From an uncultured Nitrososphaerota archaeon (lineage in GTDB: Archaea; Thermoproteota; Methanomethylicia; Methanomethylicales; Methanomethylicaceae): a stretch of 64,000 nucleotides of DNA. Numbering within the stretch: the first letter of the stretch is position 1; every line of letters starts with the position of its first letter. Shown here one piece after another: positions 1-53,795 of this stretch. The notes below the pieces were generated by a model. The model saw nothing but the letters and a program-made list of their open reading frames with translations. It searched no databases and had not been told where the DNA came from. Where the stretch lies: NCBI GenBank assembly GCA_964634735.1, contig CAZWMA010000009.1:3378-67377 (forward strand), written 5' to 3'. A program made the position numbers and the translations under genes.

Positions 1-489
1 AAGGAGGCGAAGAGCCGGTCGGTGGACCTAGCGGCGCTCGAGGCGGCGATAAACGCCAACGGCGGGGGCAAGGTCGAGGTCATCGGCCTGAAGTATTCCG
101 ACAAGAAGAAGGTGAGGACGCTCAAGGAGAGGGCGAAGGTAGCCGAGAAGACATACAGGGCGCTTGTCGAGGTTGGCTGCCCGGTCTCGAATGAGACGCT
201 TCAAAAATTGGAGAAAAGCTTTAATGGGGGCGTTATAAATCAATTAACTCCGAACAGAGTACTGCATCGGCGAGCGGACAAGCTGAGGCTCAAGAAAGTG
301 CACGAAATGACGGCTAAGCCGGTAGATGACCGGAAGATAGAGTTGGTCGTGCGCTGCCAAGGCGGGCTCTATGTGAAGGAGCTCATATCCGGCGACGAGG
401 GCAGGACTAAGCCATGCGTCGCGGACGTGATTGGCTGTAGCGCCCGGTGCGTTGAACTGGACGTGATTTCGGTAAACGAAGGTGCATAG
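1..489 (+). CDS. pus10: tRNA pseudouridine(54/55) synthase Pus10, C-terminal part (5' truncated by window)
   Basis: Q.TP.RVLHRRAD..R.K.V and GGLYVKELISGDEGRT.P motifs; usual position upstream of rpl21e. Confidence 0.93.
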   Translation, partial: KEAKSRSVDLAALEAAINANGGGKVEVIGLKYSDKKKVRTLKERAKVAEKTYRALVEVGCPVSNETLQKLEKSFNGGVINQLTPNRVLHRRADKLRLKKVHEMTAKPVDDRKIELVVRCQGGLYVKELISGDEGRTKPCVADVIGCSARCVELDVISVNEGA

Positions 490-491
490 GT

Positions 492-788
492 ATGAAGCAT
501 TCAGTAGGATACAGGAACAGGACAAGATCACTGCTCAAGAAGAAGCCCAGGGAGAGAGGGCTCTCTCCAATTAACAGGATCCTCAGGGTCTACGAGAAGG
601 GTGAGAAGGTCGTCGTTAAGATAGACCCGTCAACCCTCAAGGGTATGCCCCACAGGAGGTTCCATGGCAAGACAGCCACTGTTATCGAAAAAAGGGGCAG
701 GGCTTACGTTCTAAATGTCCACATGGGCGGTTACGAGAAGGTAATAATAGCAAGGCCCGAGCACATAAAACCTCTAGAGGCAGCATAA
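492..788 (+). CDS. rpl21e: 50S ribosomal protein L21e
   Basis: S.GYR..TR.LL.K..RERG, KGMPHRRFHGKT and RPEHIK motifs. Confidence 0.97.
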   Translation: MKHSVGYRNRTRSLLKKKPRERGLSPINRILRVYEKGEKVVVKIDPSTLKGMPHRRFHGKTATVIEKRGRAYVLNVHMGGYEKVIIARPEHIKPLEAA

Positions 789-1121
789 ATGCCAAGGGAG
801 ACCGTGCACGAGGAGGAGATAACCCTCCCAAAGGTCAAGATGATGCTTGAGCAGCGCATGAAGGATGGGGAGCTTAGCGACCTCCAGAAGAGGAGCTACG
901 ATTATTCCATCAAGTTCTCCAGACTCACGCCAGAGAAGGCAGATGGCTTGCTCAAGAGGCTCAAGGAGGACGGGATATCATCGTTCATATCCACGCAGAT
1001 AGTGAACATTATGCCGCAGAGCGTCGATGAGTTAAGGATGATATTCATGGCTGAGTCGAAGCTCATGGTCCCGTCGGAGCTAGAGAAGATCCTGACTGTG
1101 GTCAACACGTTCAGGGAATAG
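789..1121 (+). CDS. rpo4: RNA polymerase subunit Rpo4 (RpoF)
   Basis: IVNIMPQSVDELRMI motif; conserved rpl21e-rpoF-DUF655-rsmA order. Confidence 0.92.
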   Translation: MPRETVHEEEITLPKVKMMLEQRMKDGELSDLQKRSYDYSIKFSRLTPEKADGLLKRLKEDGISSFISTQIVNIMPQSVDELRMIFMAESKLMVPSELEKILTVVNTFRE

Positions 1122-1183
1122 CCTATTTTTTATCCTTAATTTTATTAACTCAGCGAAGCAGTTACTTTATCTGGTGTTTCACG

Positions 1184-1774
1184 ATGCAGCCCAACAGAGA
1201 ACAGCCGAGGAAGTTCGAGGAGATAGCATATATCCTCGAGCACCTGCCATACGGCCACCCGAAGGATACAAGGCCGCTATACCGTAGGGAGCCGATTGTA
1301 CAGGCGGTTGGCGAAGATTTCTTCACTCTGCTGGAGCTGATTCCAATCCCCGGAGCCCCGCTGAAGCAAGGGGACCAGATTGCTATCGGCAGGTGGGGCA
1401 GGGACAAGATAGACCACGTCAAGAGGAGGATAGAGTACGACGAGCTGACGCAGAACGCGAAGGATGGCCTCCAAGCGATCGTGGAATCCCTCGTGATGAA
1501 GAATGAGAAGAGATTCGTTGCGTTCTACAACAACTCAGGCCCGGTAACGACGCGCATGCACTCGCTTGAGCTGCTGCCAGGGATCGGGAAGAAGGCGATG
1601 TGGCAGGTCCTCGAAGAGAGGAAGAAGGGCCCGTTTGTGGACTTTGACGACATACAGAAGAGGACGCATATCGCCGACGCGAAGAAGACGATCATCAAGA
1701 GGATATTCGCGGAGATGCAGAACGAAGACAAGTACTACATCTTCTGCAAGCCGCCCATGAAGAAGGAGATCTGA
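1184..1774 (+). CDS. DUF655 family putative nucleic-acid-binding protein
   Basis: QAVGEDFFTLLEL, FYN.SGP.TTRMHSLELLPGIGKK (HhH); conserved synteny. Confidence 0.9.
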   Translation: MQPNREQPRKFEEIAYILEHLPYGHPKDTRPLYRREPIVQAVGEDFFTLLELIPIPGAPLKQGDQIAIGRWGRDKIDHVKRRIEYDELTQNAKDGLQAIVESLVMKNEKRFVAFYNNSGPVTTRMHSLELLPGIGKKAMWQVLEERKKGPFVDFDDIQKRTHIADAKKTIIKRIFAEMQNEDKYYIFCKPPMKKEI

Positions 1775-1777
1775 TGA

Positions 1778-2626
1778 TTGATAAGCCCGGGCCTTTTGAG
1801 CCAGACTAGGCGGGCGCTCTCTGAAATCGGGCTGAAGCCCAGCAAGAAGCTTGGGCAGAACTATGTCGTGGACCAGTCCCTCATCGACTGCATGGTCGAT
1901 GCCGCGGACATAGGGCGTGGCGATACGGTGCTGGAGATAGGCGCAGGCATAGGGACGCTCACCAAGGCAATCGCGTCGAGGGCGGGGAGGGTCATAGCCG
2001 TTGAGAAGGAGGAGGCCGCGGCGGAGTTCCTCGAAGCGGCGCTTCCAGGCAATGCCGAGGTCCTGCTTGGGGATGCGCTGGAGATGCGATTGCCGCCCAC
2101 TGACAAGGTGCTCTCAAATCTCCCTTACTCCATATCGACGCCCCTGACGTTCAAGCTGCTCTCAGAGGGGACGTTCAAGCTGGCCGTCCTCACCTACCAG
2201 AAGGAGGTTGCAGAGAGGATGGTCGCGAAGCCCGGGGGAGCGGATTACTCGAGGCTCAGCGTCGCTTGTCAGCTGAGGGCAGATGTGGAGATAGTCAGGG
2301 CATTCCCAAAGGACTCTTTCTTCCCGGTGCCGAAGGTCGAGAGCGCGGTCGTCAAGATCTCCCCCAAGGAGGATGTGATGAGCGCCTCCCAATGGGCATG
2401 GCTGGACGACACTCTGAAGGCGATGTTCTCCCAAAGGAAGAGGGTCCTCAGGAAGGCGCTGGAGACGTATGGCAAGATAAAACGGATGGACACCCCGCAT
2501 ATCGCAGACGCCATCGGGCAGGAGGTCATGAGGAAGAGGGTCTTCGAGCTTTCCCCGAAGGAGTTCAAGGTCATTGCTGAGGAGCTCAGCAGCAAGCAGG
2601 GGAACAGGCTGGGCGGCGACAGATGA
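1778..2626 (+). CDS. rsmA: 16S rRNA m6,2A dimethyltransferase RsmA/KsgA/Dim1
   Basis: KKLGQN, VLEIGAGIG, SNLPYSIS, F.P.PKV.S motifs; TTG start. Confidence 0.95.
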   Translation: MISPGLLSQTRRALSEIGLKPSKKLGQNYVVDQSLIDCMVDAADIGRGDTVLEIGAGIGTLTKAIASRAGRVIAVEKEEAAAEFLEAALPGNAEVLLGDALEMRLPPTDKVLSNLPYSISTPLTFKLLSEGTFKLAVLTYQKEVAERMVAKPGGADYSRLSVACQLRADVEIVRAFPKDSFFPVPKVESAVVKISPKEDVMSASQWAWLDDTLKAMFSQRKRVLRKALETYGKIKRMDTPHIADAIGQEVMRKRVFELSPKEFKVIAEELSSKQGNRLGGDR

Positions 2627-3216
2627 AGATCGAAGGCTTCGACGTTGCGGTGCTTGAAGGGGTCTACCCCCCGTCAGAGGACACGTTCCTTCTGATTGAT
2701 GCGATAAAGGGCGCCTCAGCAGGCAGCGCCCTTGAGGTCTGCTGCGGCACGGGCGCCGTCGGCCTCAGCGCCGCCAGCAGGGTCCGGTCGATAGTGGAGG
2801 TGGACATAAACCCCCGGGCTGCGGCAAACGCCCGGCTCAACTTTTCGAGGAACGGGCTCGGCGCAAAGGCACTCTTCGTGGTTGGCGACCTCTTCTCGTG
2901 CGTGAGGGGCAGGTTCAGCCTTGTGGTAATGAATCCGCCCTATCTGCCGGACGGGGAGGGCGACCCGCGGGATCCAGCATGGAGCGGCGGTCCAAGCGGG
3001 AGGGAGACAATCGACAGGTTCATAGATGGGCTTGGCGGCGTGCTCGCGCCTGGCGGGAGGGCGTTCTTCCTGCAGTCCTCGCTCAATGGGGAGAGGGAGA
3101 GCATCAGAAGGCTGATGGAGTCGGGGCTCGAGGGGAGGGCTGTGCTCAGAAGGCGTTTCCAGTTCGAGGAGCTTGTTGTCATCGAAGCGTTCCATGGGAA
3201 GGCGCAGAAAGGCTAA
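2623..3216 (+). CDS. HemK2/MTQ2-family methyltransferase (release-factor Gln methylase, Trm112 partner)
   Basis: VYPPSEDTFLL, LEVCCGTG, NPPY, W.GG..GR motifs. Confidence 0.88.
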   Translation: MKIEGFDVAVLEGVYPPSEDTFLLIDAIKGASAGSALEVCCGTGAVGLSAASRVRSIVEVDINPRAAANARLNFSRNGLGAKALFVVGDLFSCVRGRFSLVVMNPPYLPDGEGDPRDPAWSGGPSGRETIDRFIDGLGGVLAPGGRAFFLQSSLNGERESIRRLMESGLEGRAVLRRRFQFEELVVIEAFHGKAQKG

Positions 3217-3263
3217 AATAGGCTTTCAATCTTCCTCATTTGGAAGAAGACGGAGGAATAGAC

Positions 3264-3767
3264 ATGCCAAACGACAGACCGGCAAGCTGTTATCGTTATT
3301 TCGATACGCCAGCGTACACAAGAAGGAAGTACATCAGAGGCGTTCCAGGCTCGAAGATTGTAAAGTTTGACTACGGCGACACGAAGGGAGACTTCCCAGC
3401 GCTGGTCAGGCTGGTCGCGCTCGAGGCGGGGCAGATCAGGCACAACGCCCTCGACGCTGCGAGGGTAATCGTGACCAAGGCGATGTCAATCGGTGTCGGG
3501 GATACGGGCTACCATCTCAAGATAAGGACATACCCGCACCAGGTTCTTAGGGAGAACAAGATGATGGCATTCGCTGGGGCAGACCGTCTGCAGGACGGCA
3601 TGCGAAGGTCGTTCGGCAAGCCGTGCGGAACAGCCGCGAGGCTCAGGTTCCTTCAGCCGATAATCGACGTGAGGGTCCCAGCAGACAAGAGGCAGGTTGC
3701 ACGCGACGCGCTCAAGCTCGCCTGCGCCAAGATGCCCATGCCATGCAGGGTAATCGACGTAGAGTGA
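3264..3767 (+). CDS. rpl10e: 50S ribosomal protein L16/L10e
   Basis: RPA.CYR, YPHQVLRENKM..FAGADRLQDGMR.SFGKP; GGAGG 7 nt before ATG 3264. Confidence 0.97.
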   Translation: MPNDRPASCYRYFDTPAYTRRKYIRGVPGSKIVKFDYGDTKGDFPALVRLVALEAGQIRHNALDAARVIVTKAMSIGVGDTGYHLKIRTYPHQVLRENKMMAFAGADRLQDGMRRSFGKPCGTAARLRFLQPIIDVRVPADKRQVARDALKLACAKMPMPCRVIDVE

Positions 3768-46056: not shown

Positions 46057-46953
46057 TCATTTGAGTACCTTGCCAGTCTTGATGTACCAGAGGTAAAGGT
46101 CCAGGTCCGCCTGCGTTATGTTAAGCTTGAGCGCGATGGCAGAAAGGAGGCGCTCTATCTCGAGGTAACGCTTCCTTGTGAGCGCTTTCGAGGGGTCGAT
46201 TAACCCCTTTCCCGCAAGGTAAGAGAGGATGTGCCGGTCGATTATTGCGACATCCTTGAATCCAATGTTCCGCAGGAAGTGGCTAGCCTCCTTAAATCCG
46301 ATCCCCTTGACATTGTCCGCGAGCCACTCTCTCGCCGCAGACCCGCTGGAGAAGCCATCAAGCATCCCGCCTAATTTGCCGCATATGCATTGGGCTTCCG
46401 CGATGAACTCCGCGCGCTTGTTTGGGAATCGATGCCCCATTGCTTTCAGCTTGGCGGCCAATTCGTCCCTGCTTGCGCCCGGGAAGTCGCGCGAGAGGGC
46501 TTTCTGTATCCGCAGACCGCCCTCCGCGGTGTAGTTGGCGGTCAGGATGCAGAAGCAGAGCTCGCTGAAAACGGCGCTTTCCGAGCTTCTGATGGCCATG
46601 AACTCGCCTTCCCGCTGCTTGACTATCCCTCTTACGGCGCCCATAGCGCTTGAAATCTCGCCCAAGAAGTCCAGCTTGACGATCTGGGCGCGGCAACTCC
46701 TGTCTGCAGGCGCCATTGGGGCGAGATCCCAGAGGGCATGGGGGTGCCCAGACCGGGCTTCGAGAATTGATAAGAAGTCGTCGATGTAGTCAAAGAGGCA
46801 GCAGCTCGCGCAGGCATCTCCACTCATCAATGCCACGAGGACTGGGCCGTCAGCTTTGGTCACCTCGATGGCAGATTCATGGGAGAACCGGCGATTGAAG
46901 TCATCAACGGCAAGAAGTGTGCAGTCATCGGGATCTGAGTGGTGTGCGTTCAT
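46057..46953 (-). CDS. ogg: 8-oxoguanine DNA glycosylase/lyase (OGG2 family) with extra N-terminal CxxC domain
   Basis: F.ELCFCILTAN.TAEGG.RIQ, GHRF...RA, KGIG.KEASHFLRN.G, DRHIL, terminal LWY.KTGKVLK. Confidence 0.92.
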   Translation of the reverse strand: MNAHHSDPDDCTLLAVDDFNRRFSHESAIEVTKADGPVLVALMSGDACASCCLFDYIDDFLSILEARSGHPHALWDLAPMAPADRSCRAQIVKLDFLGEISSAMGAVRGIVKQREGEFMAIRSSESAVFSELCFCILTANYTAEGGLRIQKALSRDFPGASRDELAAKLKAMGHRFPNKRAEFIAEAQCICGKLGGMLDGFSSGSAAREWLADNVKGIGFKEASHFLRNIGFKDVAIIDRHILSYLAGKGLIDPSKALTRKRYLEIERLLSAIALKLNITQADLDLYLWYIKTGKVLK

Positions 46954-49831: not shown

Positions 49832-50110
49832 ATGTTCTTGAAGAGAAGGCTCATGGACATCCTTGCATGCCCGATATGCAAAAATCATCCTCTGGAACTC
49901 CTAGCTTTTGAGGAGAAAGAAGAGATTGAGGAAGGGATGCTTCTGTGCGGAAGCTGCGGAAGGTGGTATCCGATCATCGAGACCATACCGCATATGCTGC
50001 CGGATGACCTCAGGGACGTTGCAGAGGACAAAGGTTTCTTGATCAAGTGGGGTAAGAAGGTTCCTGAGCGCGTATCGAAGAACGGAAAGCCGTTCAATCT
50101 AGTTGAATGA
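49832..50110 (+). CDS. trm112: Trm112-family methyltransferase activator
   Basis: KRRLMDILACP.CK..PLEL, IEEG.L.C..CGRWYPI...IP.MLPD. Confidence 0.9.
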   Translation: MFLKRRLMDILACPICKNHPLELLAFEEKEEIEEGMLLCGSCGRWYPIIETIPHMLPDDLRDVAEDKGFLIKWGKKVPERVSKNGKPFNLVE

Positions 50111-50196
50111 AGGTACAGCAGAACTTTGAAAAGAAGGAAAATTAAGAAGAGGAAAGCGAAGGCTTTCCCTGAACTATTGAATGAAAGAAAAAGAGA

Positions 50197-50340
50197 TTAC
50201 TTTTTCTTATCACATTTCTGGCAATGAATCTCTCCATTAGCTAACATTGTGCCTTCCTCACCGAATGGTGGGCGATGGCAGATATAGTATGTGCTACCAG
50301 ATGGAGTCTTATAGGTCTCAAACAGCGTGCATTGCGGCAT
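50197..50340 (-). CDS. 47-aa Cys/His-rich small protein (absent from ORF track)
   Basis: MPQCTLFETYKTPSGSTYYICHRPPFGEEGTMLANGEIHCQKCDKKK; GGAGGTG 8 nt upstream; U-rich tract after the stop. Confidence 0.6.
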   Translation of the reverse strand: MPQCTLFETYKTPSGSTYYICHRPPFGEEGTMLANGEIHCQKCDKKK

Positions 50341-50467
50341 TTAACTTACACCTCCGAACATATCGACATTCCTAAAAAATGGAGCTACTATATAAAGATT
50401 GTTTGTCCTAGGTTCTGTAAAGTTGCCGGTTGGTTGGACCCGTTGTAAAAAAACGGTGGGTAAGGCA

Positions 50468-51571
50468 TTAATCTCGTGCTTTTAGCTTGGCAATTGATTC
50501 TAGTTGTTTCAGAAGGTCTTTATCAATTGAAGATTTAGTTGCAACATAATCTTTAATTTTCTCAACACCTACCATTGATCGAACCTGTGTTGCTTCAGAG
50601 AGTTGTTCTAAGCGATTACGCTTCTTTAATTCGTCTGAAGTTACGGTCCTTCCTATAATTTCAGAAACACGCGAATATGGCGATATTAAATAGGAATATC
50701 GCTCTTTAGAAAAGACCTTTGCACGCTGTTCAGCAGGCGGTTTACCTTCAATAATTTCTACTTTTTTATTATTGTCGCGTCCTCTTGATTTGAAAGTAGT
50801 TCCAAAAATATCAATATATGAAAATATGCTGAGAAAGTCATGCGCTTTGATCTCATTTTTCTCATAGGGTGAATATCCAAGATTGCACCCATATATCAAA
50901 GTCTCAGATAAGGGGGTAACAGTTCGTATTTCAGAAAGTATGTTACGGAGGTCAATTTCACCAGATTCGAATATGTTACGTAGACCCGCATCTATGGCAT
51001 ATGATGTTATGCCATTATTTTGGTAAAGATTAATGATCGGTTTTGTAAATTTTACTGATGATAGTAACGGAACCGTTCCCATAAACGCCTTATGATTACC
51101 AGAACTCTCACATTCATCAATGATTATTTTCATCATATGCAGATATTTTTCCAACCTATCCAATGTTAATTTTCCATCTACTTTGAATAAGCCACTTTTT
51201 ACTGTAGGTAAGACAATTACCTTATCGCTAGCGGAATAAAGACAATTTGACAATAACCTCAAAGTTTCATCAGATGGAACCGAGTCGATCTTTAGGTCAA
51301 ACAATGTCAAGTTTAACTTTCTTAATACATACTGTAATCTTATTTTCGAGATGAAATCGTTTTTATCGTCGGTTAATGACAAGAGTAAATCATCGTCTAT
51401 TTTCCTAACAATTTCATTAGCCATAATAGGAGTTTCGTATGGTTTTTTGATATTCTTCAAAGATACTGTTGGAGTCTCTATCGATTCATCGCTTGAAATT
51501 TTTACTTCTTTTCGAATAACACCGAGGTCATCGTCTTTCATGATTAGGTTAGTTTTTAATACCTTCGCCAT
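50468..51571 (-). CDS. Uncharacterised 367-aa protein, possibly a degenerate TGT-like TIM barrel
   Basis: Long AT-rich ORF; N-terminal K.I.....IETP and later FMGTVP / YAID / IDIFG echo TGT strands; no C-terminal Zn site. Confidence 0.5.
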   Translation of the reverse strand: MAKVLKTNLIMKDDDLGVIRKEVKISSDESIETPTVSLKNIKKPYETPIMANEIVRKIDDDLLLSLTDDKNDFISKIRLQYVLRKLNLTLFDLKIDSVPSDETLRLLSNCLYSASDKVIVLPTVKSGLFKVDGKLTLDRLEKYLHMMKIIIDECESSGNHKAFMGTVPLLSSVKFTKPIINLYQNNGITSYAIDAGLRNIFESGEIDLRNILSEIRTVTPLSETLIYGCNLGYSPYEKNEIKAHDFLSIFSYIDIFGTTFKSRGRDNNKKVEIIEGKPPAEQRAKVFSKERYSYLISPYSRVSEIIGRTVTSDELKKRNRLEQLSEATQVRSMVGVEKIKDYVATKSSIDKDLLKQLESIAKLKARD

Positions 51572-51603
51572 ATTTATAGGAAGGGTTTTCTATGAATTTA
51601 AAC
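51572..51603. promoter_or_regulatory. 32-bp bidirectional promoter for two leaderless genes
   Basis: TTTATA (51573-78) centred ~28 nt before ATG 51604; TTTAAA (51597-602) centred ~28 nt before minus-strand ATG 51571. Confidence 0.55.
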
Positions 51604-52278
51604 ATGTCTTATATTAGCGATTATGGTTTGGATTCACCTGCTCGTGGTCTCACATTATTGGTTCTTTCAATTGAAGATAAGAAAAAAAGGAAACTAATGG
51701 ATACAATTCACATACATAAAACAATTAGATATTTCTTAGCTTTGACTGGTAAAAAAAATGTAGGTTACTCAAACTATAAATTAGGAGGGGTTTCTTTCGA
51801 GATAGAAGACACATTAGATATTTTACAAGAGAATGGCTTAATTGATCAGTTGGATAACGGGTATATTCCTACTGCTGAGGGGGAATTGGTTGTAAAGCGT
51901 GGATTGAAAGATTTTTATGGTAATGACGTTTTTGAAAAATTGTCCTTTGCCAAGAGAAGGTTAAACGAATTAATTAGTAATGAACTGATGTATTTCATGT
52001 ATAATATGCTTCCTGAAACAAAAGAAAATTCTACAGAGTTTTTACGATTGGAAAAAGACCGTGATAAGTTAATAAGAAATCTTTTTTTAAAAGGTACTAT
52101 TGATATAGAAAATTATAGATTTTTTGGAATAACCGATAAGCAATTCAATGAAAGCATGGCCATTGCTAATGATTCTGAATTTATAGACGCTATTGAAAAA
52201 GGCAGTAAAGATATTCAACAAGGCAACATGCGACCACTATCCGAGTTATTGCGCAAACACAAAGTGTATTGCACTTGA
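51604..52278 (+). CDS. Putative antitoxin: YwgA/SocA(Panacea)-like wHTH domain with RelB/YefM-like C-terminal tail
   Basis: HK..RYF, Y..YKLGG.S..I.D.L..L..NG.I; tail NDSEFIDAIEKGSKDIQQGNMRPLSEL; directly upstream of relE. Confidence 0.6.
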   Translation: MSYISDYGLDSPARGLTLLVLSIEDKKKRKLMDTIHIHKTIRYFLALTGKKNVGYSNYKLGGVSFEIEDTLDILQENGLIDQLDNGYIPTAEGELVVKRGLKDFYGNDVFEKLSFAKRRLNELISNELMYFMYNMLPETKENSTEFLRLEKDRDKLIRNLFLKGTIDIENYRFFGITDKQFNESMAIANDSEFIDAIEKGSKDIQQGNMRPLSELLRKHKVYCT

Positions 52279-52291
52279 TAAGGTCTGAAGC

Positions 52292-52582
52292 ATGTACGAA
52301 ATCGTATATTCTCGCTATTTTGAAAAACAGCTTGATAAGCTCGGCGACAATGGCATTATTACAAGGATTTTAAAAGGAATATGCGATTTAGAAAGAGATC
52401 CGCTAATAGGTGAAAAACTACTTAATTTTCAATCTTACAGAAGTCTTCGAATTGGTGATTGGCGAGTAATTTACGAGATTAAAGATTCTCAAGTTCTCAT
52501 CGTGGCAATGGGTCACGGACATGATATTTATGATGAGCTTAAGAGATATAATAGAGCAACGAGGAAGTCCTTATCAATTTAG
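52292..52582 (+). CDS. relE: RelE/ParE-family toxin
   Basis: MY.I.YS..F.KQL.KL, P..G..L, LRIGDWRVIYEI, ..GH..DIY. Confidence 0.88.
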   Translation: MYEIVYSRYFEKQLDKLGDNGIITRILKGICDLERDPLIGEKLLNFQSYRSLRIGDWRVIYEIKDSQVLIVAMGHGHDIYDELKRYNRATRKSLSI

Positions 52583-53654
52583 ACTAGCGTTCTGTATCAA
52601 CGTCTTCCATTTATCATTCCCCATCACTTCAATTCCGCAAGCCTCTGCGGGGGGCTTTCCCTTCAGCGCCTCGTGCGGGCGAATGAAGTTGTGGTAAATC
52701 TGGTGGCCGGCGAATATCGGCGTCTTCTCGGACTTCAGCCCGCGCATGACCTTCTCTCGGTCCCTTATCGAGCCGTTGAAGCGCTCCATCTTATTGTTGT
52801 TCATGTCGCCCTGAAGCTTGATCGTATTGATGTGGACAGTTCGCGGCTGTGCTGACGTATAGTACTCCTTCCGCCACGCCTCATGGTAAGACTCCAAGCC
52901 ATCGGTTATGATGACGTTGGGGTTCCTTCCAGCTACTTCTTTAGCCATCCTGAAGAGGTTCCGGGCGTCGTGCTTGTGCTTCGTCTCTGCAACCTCTTGG
53001 GCAAGCCAGAACCGCGTCTCGTCGTCGATCAGCGCGAAGAGGTACTTGAGATCGCCCTTCATCTTTATGAAAAGCTCGGCAGCCCTCCATGCGCCTGAGA
53101 CGTTCGGCTTCAGTCCATCGGCGTATTTCTGGAGGAGCGCGGAATACTTCTTGATCCAGTTGTAAACGGTCTGATGGGAAACCTGAAAGCCCAACAGCTT
53201 GAGGGAGTGCATCGTGTTCCTCAACGACTCCCCGCCGTAGTAAAGCTGCATAGCCATCGTGATCGCCTTCGGGTCGTGCTTCATGCGCTCAAAGCCCAAG
53301 TTGAAAGAGAACTTGCTGCTGCAATCCTTGCACCGGTAGGTCTGGATGTTGCATGACCTGTTCCTCCGGATTCCCCACTTCATTATGTTGGAAGAGCCGC
53401 AGATCGTGCACTCGGTTAGGGTCTCTATTGGCTCGATCCTCCGTATGGCAACTTCCGTCCTCATGGCAAGCGAGATGTGGACCGCGATCAGGTGCTTGCA
53501 GGTAGCGCGCCTGTAATAATAGTCAGGGCAGTTGCAAAGCTGTGCCCTGAACTGCCCGTAGAAACAATCTACCCATTGATGACATTTGACTCAGGCGATT
53601 TCAGGTAGCACAATCGCCTGAAATCAATTTCCCTTTTTTCTTATTCGCTTCCAT
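52574..53654 (-). pseudogene. IS6/IS240-like DDE transposase with SWIM and InsA-type zinc fingers, decayed
   Basis: In-frame SWIM CNCPD...CKH upstream of ATG 53464 with no start codon (TGA at 53591-93); C..C/C..C ribbon; HTH; WRAAE in place of W.ADE; TDG; N..ER.N. Confidence 0.8.
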
Positions 53655-53795
53655 AACGTGACCGGTGACAATGAGAATGGCCACATACGGGCTCAAGCTC
53701 CCTGACTGGTCATTTTATGGAGATTAACAAAGAACTGCCCGGGAAGGTACATTTTTTAACGAAGACGCGGTATCGTCACGTGGTGCGGATTTGTC

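Follow-up and report, generated by a model that had tools for sequence, protein, structure and literature searches.

Within a 64,000-nucleotide stretch of contig CAZWMA010000009.1 from an uncultured archaeon of the Methanomethylicaceae (assembly GCA_964634735.1; hereafter, the window), we analyzed a 367-codon gene, here termed X, that lies back-to-back with a gene pair of the toxin-antitoxin (TA) kind. X is predicted to adopt the fold of a tRNA-guanine transglycosylase (TGT), and it is obligately paired with the divergent neighboring gene (the partner), which encodes an antitoxin-like protein; these two genes form the constant core of a cassette in which the classical toxin is exchangeable. 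We classify the cassette as a type II TA or defence module to which an undescribed TGT-fold protein belongs as an obligatory component, and we conclude that X is probably its third working part. The best explanation as a whole, to which we assign a probability of about 50%, is a mobile two-effector cassette in which a composite antitoxin restrains TGT-fold X. The original prediction, made from the letters of the window, had read X as a TGT-like protein beside a RelE-type TA operon, possibly an undescribed defence or addiction module. That reading of X is supported in large part, as the X model is a TIM barrel that matches TGTs best and the X homologues are TA-linked in every locus that could be examined; neither a different fold nor a lack of TA association was found.

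Obligate linkage of X and the partner

X was confirmed as a real and intact open reading frame (ORF) with the exact boundaries listed in Table 1. The partner adjoins X in all 27 of the distinct loci for which upstream DNA was available, and this adjacency also holds for a distant branch of X at 24-30% identity (L054, L055, and L057). A full-length partner was present in exactly 7 of 61 related genomes, and these were the same seven that contain X (hypergeometric P of about 2e-9). These results show that the pairing of X with the partner is obligate. A very divergent cassette (L059; G084 contig 1, positions 1429-3738, minus strand) has the co-directional order partner, PIN, X, and its genome holds a second cassette of the divergent type (L057).

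Counting the window, 13 distinct loci have the start codons of X and the partner 32-35 bp apart, and at each end of the gap an AT-rich TATA-like box adjoins the ATG. In the window the two boxes are ATTTATAG beside the ATG of X and TTTAAAC beside that of the partner. The gap plausibly consists of back-to-back promoters for two leaderless archaeal transcripts, each TATA-like box lying ~27 bp from its own start, and with this geometry on both sides a single bound repressor could control both divergent genes.

The X family and its conserved residues

The original prediction took X for an orphan, a description overturned by the recovery of 33 close homologues (35-48% identity) and about 88 representative homologue clusters among 1.84 billion proteins, the distant branch at 24-30% identity included. 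X had no match in Pfam, NCBIfam, PADLOC, or PHROGs, 61 of its homologues were likewise unmatched in these libraries, and the family profile also returned nothing from the sequences of the PDB. The named sources of the homologues are archaeal metagenome-assembled genomes (MAGs) only, with Bathyarchaeia dominating and with a Methanomethylicota-labelled MAG, Nitrososphaerales, and Ca. Sifarchaeum (Asgard) also represented. The distribution is patchy (7 of 61 related genomes and none of five genomes of the same genus), and no relative of X was found in the viral contigs of IMG/VR. We conclude that X is a member of an undescribed, archaea-only protein family.

In the wide alignment of the family N230, D254, and K346 are invariant, and T33, P34, E53, P122, N159, K161, G165, P168, Y183, D194, D245, G257, F287, Y292, Y294, N319, and E326 are conserved at 90% or more; T166 and G232 are conserved family positions as well. 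On the basis of these alignments X has a peculiar invariant polar set comprising E53, N159/K161, D194, N230, D245, D254, and K346. No Cys or His residue is conserved in either the close or the wide alignment, in agreement with the earlier statement that X lacks the zinc site of the TGTs.

A 398-residue protein that is distantly X-like is encoded at L087 (G058 contig 7, positions 290-2067, minus strand). It aligned co-linearly with the X family in hhalign (probability of 25%, P of 7.6e-4), matching X residues N159, K161, P168, D194, D245, D254, F287, N319, and K346. Its gene overlaps by 22 nt a 200-aa gene that corresponds to a DarG C-terminal domain (CTD)/YwgA-like domain alone, without PIN and without UPF0175; L087 may represent the system reduced to a minimum of two genes.

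Predicted fold of X and comparison with TGTs

X was modeled with AlphaFold2 using a 33-sequence alignment, yielding a model of alternating strands and helices with a pLDDT of 90 and a pTM of 0.90. When this model was searched against the PDB with Foldseek, the top 25 matches were all TGT, QTRT1, or archaeal TGT (ArcTGT) structures, with E values of 1.7e-7 to 8.7e-6, TM scores of 0.5-0.6, and alignments of about 390-430 columns that take in the whole protein. Among them were mouse QTRT1 (6h62), the Z. mobilis TGT, the T. maritima protein 2ash, and the P. horikoshii ArcTGT (1iq8). Generic TIM barrels, orotidine monophosphate (OMP) decarboxylase among them, ranked after the TGTs (E values of at least 1.7e-4 over ~210-250 columns), and the best match in a library of viral structures reached an E value of 3e-5 with a poor TM score. 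The model is consistent with an N-terminal beta-hairpin cap ending in ETP, a (beta/alpha)8 barrel with predicted strands at residues 35-39, 51-58, 86-93, 118-122, 162-168, 191-194, 226-229, and 251-256, and a C-terminal helical subdomain.

X and the TGTs are 9-11% identical. PF01702 matched neither X nor any of the 61 homologues, the X family profile retrieved no TGT from the PDB sequences, and comparison of the family with an alignment of 30 ArcTGT sequences from the same phylum by hhalign gave probabilities of 3-11% (P of 0.003-0.016 over the runs). The best of these alignments (11%, P of 0.0027) was nevertheless co-linear over residues 1-367 and placed DLGVIRKEV..SIETP of X against DLAARIGIL..DVETP. 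Thus, the TGT likeness of X is not above chance at the level of sequence but is clearly above chance at the level of the fold, and the ordered echoes of TGT first noticed in X hold for the second level and fail at the first. The five strings on which that observation was based, IETP (residues 31-34), FMGTVP (163-168), YAID (191-194), IYGCNLG (226-232), and IDIFG (253-257), are all present, they fall on family-conserved positions (T33, P34, G165, T166, P168, D194, N230, G232, D254, and G257), and they map to strands beta1, 5, 6, 7, and 8 of the model. A six-frame search of the host genome with PF01702 revealed one ArcTGT only, which is normal and lies on a different contig. In the same phylum, several genomes of one genus, with G023 and G031 among the cases noted, gave weak PF01702-like matches in long open frames that a single TAG interrupts.

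The CxCxxC...H zinc segment of the TGTs is deleted in X according to the hhalign comparison with ArcTGT, and Pro122 aligns, with low confidence, with the TGT residue that is the guanine-binding Asp. The nucleophile of the TGTs, which we take to be Asp280 of the Z. mobilis enzyme in the DxFD motif (numbering from the C281S mutant named in the title of the Foldseek match), has no conserved Asp as its counterpart in any of the three alignment registers. The original prediction of an exchange of this Asp for Gly therefore stands as regards the missing Asp; the exact replacement by G257, judged by alignment rather than from superposed structures, best fits the count of eight strands, and with three registers in hhalign we do not assert which residue of X takes the place. 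In the G257 register the invariant D254 lies three residues upstream of the nucleophile position (IDIFG compared with DxFD). The zinc site and the canonical Asp nucleophile appear to have been lost, and X is best described as having a predicted TGT architecture with a remodelled active site, outside the TGT family as defined.

The partner as a predicted composite antitoxin

The longest ORF of the partner starts at 51592 (51592-52278, plus strand; 228 aa), and comparison with the homologues supports a start at 51604. The protein is 38-64% identical to the products of genes adjoining X in other loci. Among 22 partner homologues, UPF0175 and the winged-helix family HTH_45 were each matched in 17; with the PADLOC models, PDC-M19A was matched in all 22 (E values to 9e-13), the retron III-A winged helix in 16, and DarG in 14 (to 1e-7), and LmuC was matched also. 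The matches to DarG fall in its C-terminal domain (positions 165-321 of the 329 in the model) and not in the macrodomain. SocA_Panacea (PF13274) was matched weakly in 2 of the 22 (best E value of 0.024) and not in the window copy, for which the only hidden Markov model (HMM) match was PDC-M19A (6e-4); UPF0175 was not matched in the window partner, where its helix-turn-helix (HTH) is degenerate. The best PDB fold matches of the partner model (pLDDT of 88) were two ~187-aa chains, B and D, in the 7yk3 structure of the DarTG complex (E value of 0.011 and TM scores of 0.40-0.48); we take these chains to be the DarG CTD. All other matches had E values of at least 0.19.

The C-terminus of the partner varies with the toxin. 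The PIN-linked proteins end after the UPF0175 HTH, the MazF-linked proteins add an acidic tail, and the RelE-linked proteins (represented in the alignment by the window copy, P0121, and P0122) add EFIDAIEKGSKDIQQGNMRPLSELL. On the basis of this domain order, the partner is predicted to be a composite antitoxin that joins a DarG-CTD-like N-domain, a UPF0175 HTH, and a toxin-specific tail.

A 141-aa DarG-CTD/YwgA-like protein is also encoded directly upstream of a 443-aa HD-domain protein at L090 (G090 contig 81, positions 1471-3227, plus strand), where a 400-aa ORF further upstream may encode a HerA-type ATPase. A similar gene pair, ywgA-ywfO, occurs in B. subtilis. The DarG-CTD/YwgA-like domain appears to pair with different enzymes.

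Exchange of the toxin

As had been predicted, a RelE-type TA operon adjoins X, with the antitoxin-like gene preceding the toxin. The window toxin matched PF05016 (1.4e-11), TIGR02385 (32.8 bits, above the cut-off of 27.9), and the RelE-like phrog_1213 (1.9e-13). A ParE/RelE-fold toxin gene 13 bp after the antitoxin gene is the order of RelBE/ParDE-type modules, and the pair recurs in L079; we regard the window toxin and the partner as a predicted type II TA pair of this type. Between the window and L079 the toxins are 86%, the partners 63%, and the X proteins 44% identical.

A DUF3368 PIN protein is the toxin in 19 loci, MazF in L062 and L065 (and in truncated form in L008/L074 and L071), and ParE/RelE in the window and L079, and no toxin was detectable downstream of the partner in L060. 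At three loci with a truncated or absent toxin (L008, L071, and L060), X and the partner are nevertheless intact. In the tree of X, the MazF-type cassettes form one clade (support of 99/100) and the RelE-type cassettes another (97/94), each nested among cassettes of the PIN type. From these single nested clades it follows that the toxin was replaced twice while the X-partner pairing remained fixed; the ancestral toxin was a DUF3368 PIN protein, replaced once by MazF and once by ParE/RelE. A decayed cassette was observed at L073 (3329-5007), in which X and the partner are each split into two ORFs and the PIN ORF (180 aa) is intact.

The cassette as an inserted island

Six related genomes contain, contiguously, genes for GlnA, Trm112, a 47-aa protein, a nitrilase-like protein, and a Cren7-like protein. 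Their homology to the window stops at ~50404-50412 and resumes at 53752, and X, the partner, RelE, and an IS6-family transposase gene therefore constitute an insertion of ~3.3 kb (Table 1). The stretch containing X has a G+C content of 32-39% in a genome of ~55%, and the cassette, about 2.2 kb in size, has 34% compared with 55% in its flanks. The cassette was more AT-rich than the flanks in 17 of 18 loci (for L079, G+C fractions of 0.34 and 0.58, respectively). A second, partial IS6 copy in the genome (G000 contig 20:332-861) is 88% identical to the first and homologous to it from window position 52584, just after the RelE stop, and an IS6-family transposase adjoins the cassette in L001 and L003 as well. 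No convincing terminal inverted repeats or target-site duplication were found for the island. The results show that the insertion of the cassette next to the IS6 element is recent and that the cassette spreads horizontally, and they hint at IS6-assisted movement.

Table 1. Features of the island in the window
Feature	Coordinates	Strand	Basis
Inserted island, ~3.3 kb	50410..53751		Six related genomes without the island
X, 367-aa protein with predicted TGT-like TIM-barrel fold	50468..51571	-	Intact ORF; homologues; AlphaFold/Foldseek
Divergent intergenic region, 32 bp, TATA-like box at each end	51572..51603		Sequence
Composite antitoxin-like partner, 224 aa	51604..52278	+	Start at the ATG matching homologues
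Partner N-domain: putative winged helix plus helical region, DarG-CTD/YwgA-like	51631..52095	+	PADLOC matches in relatives; fold match
Partner C-terminal tail (NDSEFIDAIEKGSKDIQQGNMRPLSELLRKHKVYCT), in RelE-linked copies only; presumed toxin-neutralising	52168..52278	+	Partner alignment
ParE/RelE-family toxin, 96 aa	52292..52582	+	13 bp downstream of the partner; PF05016, TIGR02385, phrog_1213
IS6-family transposase, abutting the toxin stop; part of the island, not of the module	52574..53464	-	NF033587 IS6 (2.6e-35); DDE_Tnp_IS240 (4e-16)

A left boundary of the island at 50109 was discarded, as 50109-50403 is conserved in the relatives, and the 47-aa Cys/His ORF (50197-50340, minus strand) was discarded as a module partner, being a core gene that is 83-91% identical in the six island-free relatives and that sits between the genes for Trm112 and the nitrilase-like protein. 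The OGG gene at 46057-46953 is likewise part of the core genome, outside the island. In other loci the cassette is found near restriction-modification genes, AbiEii, Orc1/Cdc6, ParB, and terminase. At L012 (8155-9309) a PIN-type cassette stands ~2 kb from a large terminase gene and may sit in a provirus, with no relative in IMG/VR. A viral origin of X was rejected on the lack of any IMG/VR relative, despite the terminase gene beside L012.

Discussion

In the two-effector arrangement that we favor, the DNA-binding parts of the antitoxin would repress both divergent leaderless promoters, the DarG-CTD-like domain would bind X directly and keep it inactive, as the DarG CTD holds DarT, and one labile antitoxin would thereby control two effectors, serving either addiction or abortive defence. 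Enzymes with the TGT fold extrude a base from RNA or DNA and cleave its glycosidic bond, and the DarG CTD binds the DNA-modifying toxin DarT directly and thereby silences it. X itself would be the second effector, an enzyme whose target is a base or nucleotide of RNA or DNA, a proposal to which we give somewhat less than an even chance. It is made because X has the fold of base-flipping, glycosidic-bond-cutting enzymes, because its invariant polar residues are numerous and densely set, because the constant domain of the partner is homologous to the DarT-silencing domain of DarG, because truncation or loss of the RNase toxin has left X and the partner intact, and because the X-like gene of L087 is paired with a DarG-CTD/YwgA-like domain alone, with no PIN. 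The base-exchange or nucleic-acid activity suggested in the original prediction would follow from the fold. More specifically, and more tentatively, X may be the first toxin or immune effector with a TGT fold. It would flip out a base of tRNA, rRNA, or DNA and excise it, exchange it, or attack it in some other way by means of a new catalytic set (E53, D194, N230, D254, and K346), and it would be silenced by the DarG-CTD-like domain of a composite antitoxin that also guards against an RNase.

Several observations weigh against the two-effector interpretation. Sequence methods never place X in the TGT family, the hhalign probability being just 3-11%, and TM scores of 0.5-0.6 with root-mean-square deviations of 6-10 Å describe a remote relationship. 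At beta7/beta8 hhalign offers three solutions, which put the TGT nucleophile position at G257, S288, or E237. The likeness of the window partner to the DarG CTD is weak (fold E value of 0.011 and PDC-M19A match of 6e-4), a toxin and its antitoxin are not usually transcribed divergently, and X is without a match in PADLOC or a relative among the viral contigs of IMG/VR.

A less likely alternative is that X is a sensor or regulator and no toxin, a catalytically remodelled TGT-like binder of nucleic acid or of a free base, such as 7-deazaguanine-modified viral DNA or damaged tRNA, that would govern how stable the composite antitoxin is or how it binds DNA and so free the RNase toxin. The divergent rather than co-directional arrangement of X and the partner, the loss of the canonical TGT catalytic residues and zinc site, and the obligate linkage to the antitoxin whichever RNase is present would all suit such a role. 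The ~20 invariant or nearly invariant polar residues, however, suggest an active site over a mere binding surface; a pure trigger would not explain why X and the partner survive intact at loci with a truncated or missing RNase toxin, and the distant X-like gene at L087 has an N-domain-only partner and no toxin at all.

It is unlikely that X is an ordinary TIM-barrel metabolic enzyme with an incidental likeness to TGTs, hitch-hiking beside a TA pair. TIM barrels do often match one another, with OMP decarboxylase and others reaching E values of ~1e-4, and sequence methods gave no TGT signal, but the TGTs take the top 25 places with scores ~1000-fold better, and their alignments extend past the barrel to the entire protein. 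Nor would a passenger be expected to show adjacency to the partner in 27 of 27 loci and co-occurrence in 7 of 7 genomes, across 24% identity and three toxin types, with the 32-35 bp head-to-head spacing conserved. That X is an active DpdA-like transglycosylase or modification enzyme, using host preQ0 to modify nucleic acids (DNA or RNA) of the host or the element while the TA pair merely stabilises the element, is very improbable: the TGT fold and the ArcTGT of the host genome accord with it, and archaeal hosts make preQ0 for archaeosine, but none of the registers places a conserved Asp of X at the nucleophile, and X is devoid of the zinc site, has Pro122 where hhalign places the guanine-binding Asp of TGTs, lacks PF01702 and PADLOC Dpd matches, and has no dpdB, dpdC, or queC/D/E beside it in any locus.

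The cassette shares elements with several known systems and coincides with none of them. X resembles the bacterial TGTs, eukaryotic QTRT1, and ArcTGT (PF01702) in its overall fold over the full length, its size of ~360 residues, the ETP hairpin before beta1, and a co-linear profile. It differs from them in having no HMM-level match, no CxCxxC...H motif, no conserved nucleophile Asp, and a Pro at the guanine-binding Asp, and in being carried on a mobile TA cassette, whereas TGTs are housekeeping enzymes and the host has a separate, normal ArcTGT. The N-domain of the partner is homologous to the DarG CTD, as noted, but the cassette has no DarT and no macrodomain match, its enzyme is a predicted TIM barrel rather than an ADP-ribosyltransferase, and the partner, unlike DarG, carries UPF0175 and a toxin-specific tail and would guard against a second toxin, an RNase.

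UPF0175 (COG2886) and the DUF3368/COG2405 PIN proteins are a predicted type II TA pair (Makarova 2009, PMC2701414; Matelska 2017, PMC5499597). In 19 related cassettes an antitoxin domain of this kind is likewise followed by PIN, but these cassettes have an extra N-domain of ~150 residues and an obligate third gene, X. The window cassette falls outside the UPF0175-PIN class, its PIN being replaced by ParE/RelE and the UPF0175 HTH of its partner being degenerate. The three-component COG2405 systems combine an HTH protein, a DUF955 protease, and PIN (PMC5499597) and were rejected as an identity for the cassette, being a different system.

DpdA and Cap10 share with X the TGT fold and a recruitment to defence or to mobile elements, and the original prediction had pointed to them as precedents. 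No specific tie to either was found: neither X nor the 61 homologues matched a Dpd model in PADLOC, no dpdB, dpdC, or 7-deazaguanine synthesis genes are nearby, no locus contains the CD-NTase, QueC-like, or OGG partner of Cap10 (type IV CBASS) or other CBASS genes near X, and X differs from both proteins in lacking the catalytic Asp and the zinc signature. The Panacea (SocA/PanA) hyperpromiscuous antitoxins, along with other multi-component TA systems, resemble the partner in that one scaffold serves different toxins through modular change, but the scaffold of the partner keeps a constant second partner, X.

No description of the cassette was found in the literature searchable by full text. 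What the window adds is a ParE/RelE-swapped version, antitoxin tails matched to the toxins, two toxin replacements on the tree, and homology to the DarG CTD at the level of sequence. To our knowledge, TGT-fold enzymes are known for tRNA and DNA base exchange and not as obligate partners of antitoxins. The TA and defence biology of archaea is little explored, and the X family offers a new enzyme family with defined invariant residues to test. The cassettes further provide a natural series in which one antitoxin scaffold swaps its tails for PIN, MazF, or RelE, and they may be, next to DarTG, the second example of a nucleic-acid-directed enzyme kept in check by a domain of the DarG-CTD type. If this interpretation is true, the island would carry an archaeal cassette for addiction or defence in which a single antitoxin controls two effectors.

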